DNA of 64,000 nt, taken from the NCBI GenBank assembly GCA_022601535.1, contig JAJACK010000001.1, positions 569,803 to 633,802 on the forward strand. Direction: 5' to 3'. This document shows, one piece after another, positions 35,882-38,420 of the stretch (its first letter is position 1; the number at the start of each line of letters is the position of its first letter). Source of the stretch: Chlamydiales bacterium. Lineage in GTDB: Bacteria; Chlamydiota; Chlamydiia; Chlamydiales; JAAKFR01. A program made the position numbers and the translations under genes. Below the pieces are notes generated by a model, which worked only from the letters and a program-made list of their open reading frames with translations, was not told the DNA's origin and did not search any database.

Positions 35882-36346
35882 ATGCAGCCACTTAGAGGTG
35901 TTGAAAACCTAAATTGTACCGTTAATTATTATGGATCTACAAGCCTTGAAAAAGAGATGGTTGCTGGTTATGCGGTATTGTCTTTGGGTAGTTTAGCCTT
36001 AGGCAAAGGCTTATCAAGCCCCACAATCTCAAATAGATTCACGATATTTGGGAAATTTTGTGGAGGGGCTGCAGCTTTAGGGGCCGTAAGTTTCTATCTT
36101 CTGGGGTTAATTTTAAAGATAAAAGTTGTGATTAATAATTTGATCCAAATTTTTAATGCAGATGACTTTAAAGATCTTCCAGAAATAAAAAAAATTTCAA
36201 TTCCAGGAATGGATCCAGTCTATTCAATCTCATACCTGAAAAATGGGGAGGGACACTTAGAGTTTTGCAGGGGACCTCTTGTGGTAAAAGAAAGACTTAA
36301 GTTATGTGGATTTGAAGCTCTTTTAGAAAATGAGGATGGGTTGTGA
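35882..36346 (+). CDS. Inc-like membrane protein, paralog A (hypothetical)
   Basis: 154 aa with a bilobed hydrophobic region (VAGYAVLSLGSLALGKGL...FGKFCGGAAALGAVSFYLLGLIL). Its C-terminal domain is alignable with paralog B (DFKDLPEI...SISYLKNGEGHLEF versus DFKEIDTF...TLTYAQKGRPHIEF). Confidence 0.55.
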   Translation: MQPLRGVENLNCTVNYYGSTSLEKEMVAGYAVLSLGSLALGKGLSSPTISNRFTIFGKFCGGAAALGAVSFYLLGLILKIKVVINNLIQIFNADDFKDLPEIKKISIPGMDPVYSISYLKNGEGHLEFCRGPLVVKERLKLCGFEALLENEDGL

Positions 36347-36372
36347 GATGATCGCCCATTAACCTCTCATTT

Positions 36373-36406
36373 CCCTCCTAAAACGCAAAATAGCGATTTA
36401 GGAGGG
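36373..36406 (+). repeat. 34-nt hairpin element, copy 1
   Basis: CCCTCCTAAA-A-CGC-AAAATA-GCG-A-TTTAGGAGGG: a 10-bp stem plus a 3-bp inner stem. It lies 27 nt after the paralog A stop. Confidence 0.9.
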
Positions 36407-36427
36407 AAAAATTACATTGCCTTAAAA

Positions 36428-36465
36428 CCCTCCTAAAACGCAAAATAGCGATTTAGGAGGGTTTT
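36428..36465 (+). promoter_or_regulatory. 34-nt hairpin element, copy 2, plus TTTT; terminator-like and sequesters the SD of the downstream ATPase gene
   Basis: Identical 34-mer at 36428-36461, preceded by AAAA and followed by TTTT and then GTG (36466). Its 3' arm, TTTAGGAGGG, contains the only AGGAGG for that start. Confidence 0.6.
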
Positions 36466-37914
36466 GTGAGTCAAGCACCATTCATAGGAAGAGAACATGA
36501 AATCGGAGGATTACTCCGTCTAATAGATAAAAGTACGGCGAGTTTAGTGACAGTTCAGGGGAGAAGGCGTGTTGGTAAAAGCCGATTAATTGAAGAATTT
36601 GCTAAAAAGACAGGTTACACTTTTTACCGTTTTTCAGGCCTTCCTCCAAGAGTGGGGTTGTCTCCCCAAGATCAGCGGAATGAATTCTCTAGAGCTTTTG
36701 GTGAGCAGCTTGGGCTTAAGGGATTTTCAAGCTCTGATTGGGGGGATTTATTTGCCTTGCTCGCTTCTCAAGTGAAAGAAGGAGAAACCTTTATTCTTTT
36801 TGATGAGATTTCTTGGATGGCAGCAGATGATCCAACTTTTCTGGGGAAGCTAAAAAATGCGTGGGATATCCATTTTAATAAAAATCCCAAGCTCATTTTG
36901 GTTCTTTGTGGATCTGTATCTGCATGGATCGATAAAAATATTTTACGCAGTACAGGTTATGTGGGAAGGATTTCGCACTCATTGCACCTTGAAGAACTCC
37001 CTTTGATGGACTGCAATCAACTTTTGCAAAGTGTAGGCACGCATTATTCTCCTTGGGAAAAATTCCTTGTTCTTTCAGTGACTGGAGGGATTCCTCGTTA
37101 TATTGAAGAGCTCAGTCGATCTGAAACAGCAGAGCGAGCAATCGGGCAACTTTGCTTTGAGAAAGAGGGACTCTTGTTTCGAGAGTTTGATAATATTTTC
37201 TCAGATTTGCTTTCTAAAAGAAATGCTAATTATAAACGGATTGTATTGGCTTTACAAGATCGGAATCTGAGCTATAGTGAAATTTGTGAGACATTGGGAG
37301 TGCAAAAGAGCAGCCATGTCAATGGGTGGCTAGAAGATTTGGTAAAATCAGGATTTCTTAGCCGTGACTACACGTGGGATATCACTAGCAAAAAGGAGTC
37401 AAAGCTAAGTCGCTACCGGATCAAAGATAACTATATTCGATTCTATCTGAAGTATATCCAGCCAAATTTAGGACGAATCCAAAAAGGACATTTTAACGAT
37501 TATTCACTGTCAAACTTGCCAGGTTGGAATGGAATCATCGGGCTTCAGTTTGAAAATTTAGTCCTTGCTAATCGGAAGTGGATCCTCGAGAAATTACGCC
37601 TGCGACCTGAAGATGTTTTAAATGATAACCCTTATTTTCAACGTGAGACTCAAAAGTACCGGGGATGCCAAGTCGATTACCTGGTACAAACTCGATTTAA
37701 TACTCTCTTCGTCTGTGAGGTAAAGTTTTCTAAAAAAGAGATTTCATCTCAAATTTTAGGAGAGATGAGAGAGAAAGTAAAGCGGCTTTTAATTCCGAAA
37801 GGGTATGCGTGTAACCCTGTTCTTATCCATGTCAATGGAGTGAGTTGCGCTGTAGAGGAGAGTCGGTTTTTTTCTCATATCATCGATCTATCAGAAACTC
37901 TTACAACTATTTAA
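36466..37914 (+). CDS. AAA+ ATPase of the Arch_ATPase/DUF234 type with a C-terminal PD-(D/E)xK-like module
   Basis: 482 aa, GTG start. N-terminal FIGREHEI, Walker A GRRRVGKS, Walker B ILFDEISW. The C-terminal VDYLV...CEVKF resembles a restriction-endonuclease-like motif. Confidence 0.78.
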   Translation: MSQAPFIGREHEIGGLLRLIDKSTASLVTVQGRRRVGKSRLIEEFAKKTGYTFYRFSGLPPRVGLSPQDQRNEFSRAFGEQLGLKGFSSSDWGDLFALLASQVKEGETFILFDEISWMAADDPTFLGKLKNAWDIHFNKNPKLILVLCGSVSAWIDKNILRSTGYVGRISHSLHLEELPLMDCNQLLQSVGTHYSPWEKFLVLSVTGGIPRYIEELSRSETAERAIGQLCFEKEGLLFREFDNIFSDLLSKRNANYKRIVLALQDRNLSYSEICETLGVQKSSHVNGWLEDLVKSGFLSRDYTWDITSKKESKLSRYRIKDNYIRFYLKYIQPNLGRIQKGHFNDYSLSNLPGWNGIIGLQFENLVLANRKWILEKLRLRPEDVLNDNPYFQRETQKYRGCQVDYLVQTRFNTLFVCEVKFSKKEISSQILGEMREKVKRLLIPKGYACNPVLIHVNGVSCAVEESRFFSHIIDLSETLTTI

Positions 37915-37988
37915 CGTGACTGAGTTTGTCATTGTATTTTTAATGGTTTCACATTACAACATTGTGGCTAAATAAAATAGGAGACACA

Positions 37989-38420
37989 ATGTCATCATCA
38001 CAAGTAGCTTTTCCTCAACAGAGTTTTCATGTCGCGACATCAATAGAAAAAGGAGCTTGTGCTTGTGCGATTGTATGTTGTTTAGTTGCAAGAACAATAT
38101 TGAAGCGCTCATCTCCATCACCTATTTTAAAAGCAGTCGCCCTATTTGGGAATGTTTGTGAAGGAGGCGTAGTTGTTGGTGGAGGGGCTTATTTCGTTTC
38201 AAAAATAGTGATGTTATGGAAAGTTGGTCTCTTGAATCTTTCTGAAGAATTTGAAGGCAAAGATTTCAAAGAGATTGACACCTTCCGCCCAATCAGTCGC
38301 TCTACTGGGTCATTACTGACACTTACCTATGCTCAAAAGGGGAGGCCTCATATTGAGTTTTTCATGCGAGAGGCAGTGCAAGCTGAAAGGGCAAGAGCTT
38401 TGGGATATGAACTCCCTTAA
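37989..38420 (+). CDS. Inc-like membrane protein, paralog B (hypothetical)
   Basis: I chose the start at ATG 37989, with AGGAG 6 nt upstream; the track ORF starts at 37962. It has a bilobed hydrophobic region and a C-terminal domain similar to paralog A. Confidence 0.55.
   Translation: MSSSQVAFPQQSFHVATSIEKGACACAIVCCLVARTILKRSSPSPILKAVALFGNVCEGGVVVGGGAYFVSKIVMLWKVGLLNLSEEFEGKDFKEIDTFRPISRSTGSLLTLTYAQKGRPHIEFFMREAVQAERARALGYELP

Follow-up and report, generated by a model that had tools for sequence, protein, structure and literature searches.

Why does the gene of a predicted ATPase-nuclease lie between two paralogous genes for small hydrophobic proteins, just upstream of the type III secretion system (T3SS) cluster of a chlamydia? 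The question is raised by a stretch of 64,000 nucleotides, called the window from here on, which comes from S4CHLAM45, a metagenome-assembled genome (MAG) of an uncultured member of the Chlamydiales. An earlier note, made from the letters alone, had described three open reading frames (ORFs) in this islet and we found all of them in place: ORF A, the ATPase gene and ORF B, the products of which are each 100% identical to proteins listed under the locus tags S4CHLAM45_11640, _11650 and _11660 (the same holds for CdsD of the T3SS and _11690). The three genes run in one direction and are tightly packed, and A and B share the same architecture. We consider it probable, at roughly two chances in three, that this is an accessory islet at a variable junction, in which two old copies of an orphan gene and a mobile PDC-S27 cassette set between them have different origins; this estimate includes the mechanism proposed below.

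The junction between sulP and yidD and its cargo

As the earlier note had suggested, we compared the locus in relatives, which were reached via homologs of CdsD (L-numbers denote the contigs or loci compared). Contig L088, the CdsD of which is 61% identical, carries SNF2, EngA, SulP, YidD, CesT, CdsD and the rest of the T3SS cluster in the order of the window, and the orthologous backbone from SNF2 to CdsD was also found in L097. Identities of the syntenic proteins to those of the window were 53-62% for SulP (L088, L090, L097), 59-65% for YidD (L088, L089, L090, L097) and 59-65% for EngA. In L088, the gap between sulP and yidD amounts to only 66 bp, which form a hairpin, and in L097, L098 and L099 the two genes overlap. 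L090 carries other cargo at the same junction (positions 6270-9116), namely a nuclease matching PADLOC family PDC-S02 (YhcG/DUF1016, PD-(D/E)xK; E 1e-145), a sulfotransferase and a 152-aa ORF. The latter was rejected as a relative of A and B, since it is neither hydrophobic nor related to them. Because the junction is empty in L088 and L097 and filled with other cargo in L090, it is a variable hotspot, which holds two different single-gene candidate defence nucleases in two lineages. The placement of the islet between a SulP permease and the T3SS cluster, as read in the earlier note, was borne out, with SulP upstream and YidD, CesT and CdsD downstream.

The ATPase gene was found in other surroundings. 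Its six closest homologs (68-80% identity) occupy six gene contexts, beside cydA/dacA, glgP, PDH-E2, fixO, deoC and fumC. All six contigs are chlamydia-like; the cluster of one homolog has a member from the Chlamydiales MAG S4CHLAM2, and one contig carries UPF0242, which we take to be a chlamydia-specific family. Five of the six (L003, L004, L092, L093, L096) keep the layout of two palindromes in front of the gene and L095 has one palindrome. The arms CCCTCC...GGAGGG are present in all six, and the sequences that adjoin the cassette, left of palindrome 1 and beyond the stop codon, are unrelated. Judged by these alignments, the ATPase gene appears to be a self-contained mobile cassette of ~1.55 kb. 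Homologs of A and B were absent from all other ATPase loci compared, and a conserved co-occurrence of the three genes was not observed. In L096 (ATPase 77% identical), the convergent gene downstream (2469-3152) encodes a SulP/STAS permease, a different paralog with 26% identity to the SulP of the window, and this adjacency is probably a coincidence.

When we inspected base composition, the AT-richness noticed earlier proved to be real and modest (39.2% GC in the islet vs 42.9% in the window), and the codon usage of the islet genes was not distinctive. GC content at third codon positions (GC3) was 0.29-0.30 for A and B, 0.35 for the ATPase gene, which is ordinary, and 0.33-0.44 for 13 other genes of the window. 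This composition fits a transfer within the Chlamydiae or a long residence. A tRNA-linked island was rejected, the nearest tRNA being 20 kb off.

The product of the ATPase gene matched family PDC-S27 of PADLOC-DB v2 (PDLC04984) with an E-value of 1.9e-76 and 255.8 bits (residues 5-441 vs profile positions 3-434 of 474). The 482-aa length and the ATPase motifs quoted in the earlier note were confirmed. Pfam ATPase_2 (PF01637) was matched over its entire profile (1-225 of 225) with 41.7 bits at a gathering cut-off of 33.2, and among 41 homologs G32-K38-S39 and D113-E114 were invariant. In the same 41 homologs, E363, D404 and E418 of the C-terminal tail were invariant and K420 was nearly so. An alignment-based AlphaFold2 model of the ATPase reached a predicted local distance difference test score (pLDDT) of 90 and a predicted template modelling score (pTM) of 0.85. 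From the DSSP assignment of this model, it can be seen that residues 354-474 form an alpha-beta-beta-beta-alpha-beta core (helix 354-368, strands 384-392, 401-409 with D404 and 413-420 with E418-V-K420, helix 429-440, strand 448-455). According to the model, the tail adopts the fold of a PD-(D/E)xK nuclease with the aspartate on strand 2 and the (D/E)xK motif on strand 3, and the PD-(D/E)xK-like ending proposed by the earlier note is supported by this topology and by the invariant residues. The fusion of an ATPase to a PD-(D/E)xK domain that characterizes PDC-S27 was thus found in the ATPase_2 match, the modelled topology and the conserved residues.

Other parts of the earlier description had to be revised. 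The assignment as DUF234-type was abandoned, since PF03008 matched neither the whole ATPase (E <= 0.1) nor its C-terminal 149 aa (334-482; E <= 10). A mostly archaeal distribution was not seen either: there were 6371 homologous matches among the scored candidates, and the best 120 of them were 53-57% identical outside the chlamydial clade, the few with a named source being labelled Alpha-, Gamma- or Deltaproteobacteria. The S27 family, a fusion of ATPase and PD-(D/E)xK, is abundant among bacteria and archaea alike, 3503 of its instances being archaeal and 4562 bacterial (PMC12988326). Nor is the family devoid of an assigned role, as PADLOC lists PDC-S27 as a candidate defence family; the PDC systems are untested candidates that came out of 'guilt-by-embedding' (bioRxiv 10.1101/2024.01.29.577857). 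We therefore regard the ATPase gene as a candidate anti-phage defence gene. Single-sequence and profile searches of the PDB by sequence found no relative of the ATPase, and PHROGs and NCBIfam returned nothing. A comparison of the C-terminal profile with YhcG and CoiA by hhalign was negative, as expected for families so divergent. Distant copies of the ATPase were present in 40 plasmid and 7 phage records. One homolog (28% identity over 90% of the query, E 9e-47) is located at 11406-12725 of Wolbachia phage WO MN180249.1, within WO prophage DNA of a bacterium that is likewise obligate intracellular, and is annotated there as hypothetical protein only.

Table 1. Coordinates of the islet features and of the adjoining backbone genes (nucleotide positions refer to the window, residue numbers to the ATPase-nuclease)
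Feature	Position	Strand	Description
Islet	35822-38442		accessory, lineage-specific, at the sulP-yidD junction, just upstream of the T3SS cluster
sulP (SulP/STAS permease)	34031..35821	+	left backbone gene; Pfam Sulfate_transp 4.5e-80 plus STAS
Upstream region of A	35824..35881	+	candidate -35 TTGCAT 35825-35830, -10 TATAAC 35848-35853, ribosome-binding site AGGAGA 35872-35877
ORF A	35882..36346	+	154 aa; N-terminal transmembrane (TM) hairpin (bilobed hydrophobic domain) and C-terminal domain of ~60 aa; orphan, candidate Inc-like
Cassette	~36370-37914		~1.55 kb; exactly between the stop codon of A and the promoter of B
Palindrome 1	36373..36406		CCCTCCTAAAACGCAAAATAGCGATTTAGGAGGG; 34 bp; left cassette end
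Candidate ATPase promoter	36417..36446	+	-35 TTGCCT 36417-36422, 18-nt spacer, -10 CAAAAT 36441-36446 in the centre of palindrome 2
Palindrome 2	36428..36461		identical to palindrome 1; 3' arm holds ribosome-binding site AGGAGG 36455-36460, 5 nt before GTG
ATPase-nuclease gene	36466..37914	+	482 aa; GTG start; PDC-S27 family
AAA+ ATPase_2 domain	residues ~1-250		Walker A G32-S39, Walker B D113/E114
Winged helix	residues ~250-320 (model: 255-319)		weak HTH_5/wHTH and ArsR-type helix-turn-helix (HTH) matches
PD-(D/E)xK domain	residues ~345-475; nt 37552-37725		E363, D404, E418, K420
Upstream region of B	37931..37988	+	candidate -35 TTGTAT 37932-37937, -10 TACAAC 37955-37960, ribosome-binding site AGGAGA 37979-37984
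ORF B	37989..38420	+	143 aa; paralog of A, same architecture
yidD	38443..38823	-	right backbone gene; Pfam YidD 5.3e-16; followed by CesT-family chaperone and cdsD of the T3SS cluster

The two small membrane proteins

A and B had been described as paralogs with an alignable C-terminal domain, and formal alignment agreed. BLASTP yielded 27% identity over 131 aa (E 3e-13), and the Smith-Waterman score was 139 compared with 28 +/- 4.7 for shuffled sequences (n=3000). The C-terminal soluble parts alone scored 65 (shuffles 20 +/- 3.7) and the N-terminal hydrophobic parts alone 72 (shuffles 26 +/- 5), values that were reached by 0/3000 shuffles in either case. Conserved C-terminal motifs are DFK, Y..G..H.EF and ER..G.E. 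As start of ORF B, we preferred the ATG at 37989 with its ribosome-binding site to the TTG at 37962, and gene callers likewise give 143 aa. No third copy was present within the window. A word-indexed search of 5.8 billion proteins and a full HMMER scan of 1.84 billion representatives found no homologs besides A and B, and neither protein matched a Pfam, NCBIfam, PADLOC or PHROG family. By these searches, A and B appear to constitute a two-member orphan family.

The homology of the two genes extends into their upstream regions. The 60 nt in front of A and B align without gaps at a fixed offset of 2107 nt with 34/60 identical positions, a value that 0/20000 shuffles reached. The conserved blocks, as read from the sequence, probably correspond to a -35 element, a -10 element at a distance of 17 nt and a ribosome-binding site. 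Since these regions are homologous, the duplicated unit took in the promoter, and A and B look like independent genes that are old tandem copies. The upstream homology of B starts 17 nt past the ATPase stop codon and, thus, the right edge of the cassette lies within 37915-37930.

The earlier note had called A and B similar to chlamydial inclusion membrane (Inc) proteins because of a bilobed hydrophobic region. This part held. In Kyte-Doolittle plots (19-residue window), A has lobes at residues ~26-44 (peak 1.4, a weak first lobe) and 56-88 (peak 2.05), and B at ~20-38 (peak 1.75) and 48-80 (peak 1.55), separated by Ser/Pro-rich loops of ~10 residues. The AlphaFold2 model of ORF A is poor (pLDDT 62) and consists of a helical hairpin (21-43 / 47-91) and a small beta domain, so that the bilobed pattern used for Inc prediction (PMC3048545) was found by hydropathy and in the modelled helices. 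Homology to a described Inc family was not detected in Pfam or NCBIfam, and only self-hits were obtained in both large protein sets; here, the likeness is one in silico only. The N-termini of A and B are rich in Ser, Gln and Pro and lack a Sec-type signal. Under the criteria set out by Dehoux et al. (PMC3048545), both proteins are putative Incs and nothing beyond in-silico candidates. About 4-10% of chlamydial genes are predicted to encode Incs (PMC3048545), and 2-3 of the 58 ORFs of the window are Inc-like. A further ORF of the window (15153-15590; 145 aa, no Pfam family) has hydrophobic segments at 85-114 and 124-138, near its C-terminus, and possibly encodes a small hairpin membrane protein.

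It is quite possible, though less likely than not, that A and B are no secreted Incs at all, but either ordinary proteins of the bacterial inner membrane or orphan ORFs without function. A hairpin of two helices is not specific for Incs, some predicted Incs are absent from the inclusion membrane (PMC3048545), the hydrophobicity of A's first lobe is weak, and there is no homolog, family or confident fold to lean on. However, reading frame, hydropathy, C-terminal motifs and the promoter and ribosome-binding boxes have been kept in both genes at 27% protein identity, which argues for selection. The missing Sec-type signal, the Ser/Gln/Pro-rich N-termini and the chlamydial host with a complete T3SS adjoining also speak against this possibility.

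The palindromes in front of the ATPase gene

The two palindromes of the cassette are 100% identical and 55 bp apart (0 expected by chance), and they occur nowhere else in the 64 kb. All six aligned cassettes of the chlamydial clade share an invariant TTG within the spacer and, 17-18 nt away, an invariant AAAAT at the middle of palindrome 2, and we infer that these two represent the -35 and -10 elements of the ATPase gene. With the -10 element inside palindrome 2, the gene's own transcript would start there and would lack the 5' arm. If region 36360-36480 were transcribed completely, it would fold with -52.5 kcal/mol (z -10.8) into two hairpins in which both the ribosome-binding site and the start codon are buried. 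The palindromes may therefore insulate the ATPase gene from read-through out of gene A. Searches of Rfam returned no family for them, only sub-threshold miRNA and snoRNA noise, and a CRISPR was rejected, because there are two copies only with a 21-nt spacer.

To characterize the family, we surveyed 80 metagenome loci with 75 distinct upstream regions. A palindrome with a stem of at least 11 bp was present in 55/75 of these regions compared with 11/375 shuffles. Two or three copies were found at 31 loci, and 34 of the 38 copy spacings were 54 or 55 bp. The palindromes of the arrays measure ~34-40 bp (loci L009-L087), and examples extend from -96 to -5 (L009), from -101 to -3 (L029) and from -142 to -52 (L076) relative to the start codon. 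Their outer arms are specific for each locus and common to the copies within it, and the inner core AAATCGACA is enriched and shared across loci. We found no description of an array with a period of 54-55 bp in front of PDC-S27 genes in Rfam or in the literature searched.

Are these palindromes sites on DNA or hairpins in RNA? The idea that they work as RNA hairpins, as terminator of gene A and as translational lock on the ribosome-binding site of the ATPase gene, appears rather unlikely to us. The predicted fold is very stable, as its energy and z-score indicate, and hairpin 2, with UUUU directly behind it, covers AGGAGG as well as the GTG start. However, among the stem mismatches of 72 palindromes G-U pairs (20) were not in excess over A-C (25), which speaks more for a site of fixed geometry on double-stranded DNA than for a structure in RNA. 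Moreover, independent hairpins would not need the strict period that many metagenome contigs keep, and the candidate -10 element within palindrome 2 would deprive the gene's own transcript of the 5' arm. Roles in RNA and in DNA could coexist.

The ATPase gene, the product of which bears the winged helix, is the sole gene that always adjoins the array. Read most simply, this would mean that the protein binds the palindromes in front of its own gene.

Origin, action and comparison with known systems

According to our proposal, the protein would bind its palindrome array in the manner of Orc1/Cdc6, using both its AAA+ domain and its winged helix, and would thereby keep its own gene repressed and insulated. 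A trigger, for which foreign DNA is the likeliest candidate, would make it assemble with ATP and cut DNA by its PD-(D/E)xK domain. A and B would not be required for this action.

For the gene order, the earlier note had left the choice between a tandem pair split by an acquired gene and a three-gene module. The split pair fits the junction that is empty in relatives, the occurrence of the cassette elsewhere and the separate promoters of A and B. The module, in which A, B and the ATPase-nuclease would act together (for instance as membrane-anchored sensors or effectors in defence or host interaction) and would move as one block, is improbable in our opinion. In its favour, the three genes share one direction and are tightly packed, and a single 2.6-kb block entering the empty sulP-yidD site needs fewer events than gain, duplication and insertion. 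L092 also counts for it. There, the stretch 6456-9817 holds the ATPase cassette inside an array of paralogous bilobed, Inc-like proteins (E 6e-8 and 1e-15) with a 148-aa protein upstream and proteins of 172 aa and 221 aa downstream, so that the sequence of bilobed paralog, ATPase and more bilobed paralogs is repeated. However, these flanking proteins have no detectable homology to A and B (hhalign probability 0.1%), and at least four of the seven contexts in the chlamydial clade lack such flanks on either side (L095 downstream ends at the contig end). In a crude raw-ORF scan of 46 non-chlamydial loci, small hydrophobic ORFs were near 16 of them, on one side only and with no consistent arrangement, and on both flanks at 0/46. 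In addition, PADLOC treats S27 as a single-gene system, each of the three genes has an apparent promoter and ribosome-binding site of its own, and the cassette hairpins would block read-through translation. The homologous promoter and ribosome-binding regions of A and B, in particular, make the module unlikely.

When a circle integrates by a single crossover, direct repeats of the homologous segment are expected on both sides of the cargo. This raises the option of a Campbell-type event, in which a circular DNA with an A-like gene and the cassette recombined with a resident A-like gene, so that A and B would be donor and recipient alleles and not an older tandem pair. We give it a low probability. 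The geometry of gene, cargo and gene with flanking direct repeats is what such a crossover would leave, the duplicated unit takes in the promoter region and ends near the cassette edges, and L092 has the same geometry. On the other hand, neither a circular form nor an integrase or plasmid was seen, the three paralogs of L092 fit a pre-existing array, and at 27% protein identity no DNA homology is left on which the event could be tested. We attribute the pattern shared by L092 and the window to plastic intergenic sites common to accessory genes and Inc arrays or to integration of the Campbell type.

Several observations weigh against a mobile cassette set between two older gene copies and against the action proposed for it. 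We found no genome with A and B adjacent without the ATPase gene, or with a single A-like gene; the islet may have come about by gain, duplication and insertion or may have arrived as one block, and insertion of one block would need fewer events. Measured against the frequencies of Inc-like genes given above, two cases of a cassette between bilobed paralogs in seven contexts look non-random, and the composition of the islet gives little sign of foreign origin. The defence role of PDC-S27 is only predicted, and when eight candidates were tried in E. coli B, PDC-S27 was outside the four reported to protect against T4, T5 or T7 (bioRxiv 10.1101/2024.09.26.614923). Binding of the array by the protein is only deduced. 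Outside the chlamydial clade, little speaks for a -10 element centred in the proximal palindrome as a family-wide trait (7/53 loci vs 8.5% in controls, or 31% vs 18% within 5 nt).

The boldest scenario, for which we see very little chance, is that PDC-S27-type genes are autonomous Orc1/Cdc6-like nuclease cassettes with the array as a cis site that marks or moves the element in a homing-like fashion, their repeated landings in chlamydial arrays of Inc-like paralogs being the result of nuclease-caused breaks and repair that help to duplicate and diversify host-interaction genes.

Taken as a whole, the islet is composed of known kinds of parts, a PDC-S27 candidate defence gene and in-silico Inc-like orphans, and it is of an ordinary accessory kind, with a regulatory repeat of unusual clarity. 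Among the new points, two are the most useful: a hotspot at which the nuclease cargo differs and a palindrome array with a strict period. Even in a chlamydial genome of small size, a variable hotspot is retained next to the T3SS genes, at which single-gene candidate defence nucleases come and go (PDC-S27 here, PDC-S02 in a relative). PDC-S27 is among the commonest uncharacterized defence candidates and gains a concrete cis element of two to three locus-specific palindromes with a period of 54-55 bp round the promoter, which makes its regulation or DNA recognition directly testable. Two orphans are added to the possible inclusion membrane proteins, as candidates only.

Two observations concern the backbone. 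Between the SNF2 helicase gene and engA (31291-32582), the window carries an AT-rich region (GC 0.36-0.39) with a 331-aa Peptidase_S9-like hydrolase, which has a hydrophobic N-terminus, and a 99-aa ORF. Neither L088 nor L090 has the pair at this position, where L097 carries three different hypothetical genes; the region looks like a second variable junction of the same backbone. CdsD of the window (39291-41198) comprises 635 aa, and the CdsD proteins of the Chlamydiaceae (~800-850 aa) align over only ~71-74% of it. Several environmental relatives also have a short CdsD.

When compared with known systems, A and B resemble chlamydial Incs in their two predicted TM helices near the N-terminus with a short Ser/Pro/Thr-rich loop, in the missing Sec signal, in their confinement to a chlamydial lineage and in their occurrence as tandem paralogs. 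They differ in lacking homology to any known Inc family, and their loops are flanked by Lys/Arg. For the ATPase-nuclease, PDC-S01 (AAA_14 plus DUF4143) follows the same logic of ATPase and PD-(D/E)xK and gives weak cross-matches, but it is another family and its match has an E-value of 1e-4 or weaker. PDC-S02 (YhcG/DUF1016), which shares the sulP-yidD junction in L090, is again another family and lacks the ATPase domain. A Foldseek search of the PDB ranked the archaeal proteins SSO1545 (2FNA) and Paby2304 (2QEN) first, followed by Orc/Cdc6, RuvB and the NB-ARC domains of plant NLR proteins, and all of these matches cover about the first 370 residues. SSO1545 and Paby2304 are the best structural match to the AAA+ and winged-helix part (E 1e-10 and 2e-9; TM-score 0.65-0.67, normalized to target length) and have PF01637 in common with it, but identity is only 18-20% and the solved chains of ~350 residues do not cover the C-terminal nuclease domain.

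Orc1/Cdc6 initiators likewise combine an AAA+ domain and a winged helix, and their origin recognition boxes (ORBs) resemble the cassette palindromes in being repeated dyad-symmetric elements (~36 bp) beside their own gene with an AT-rich spacer between them. The ATPase studied here differs in having a nuclease domain, no sign of a replication function was seen, and the repeats, which overlap its own promoter, are direct copies that recur at a constant 54-55 bp. The closest likeness is to PDC-S27 of PADLOC, as the protein matches the family hidden Markov model (HMM) full-length, has the same domain order and is encoded by a solitary gene in most contexts. What sets the present gene apart is its residence in a chlamydia of the obligate intracellular type (contig ~1 Mb), between duplicated Inc-like genes.

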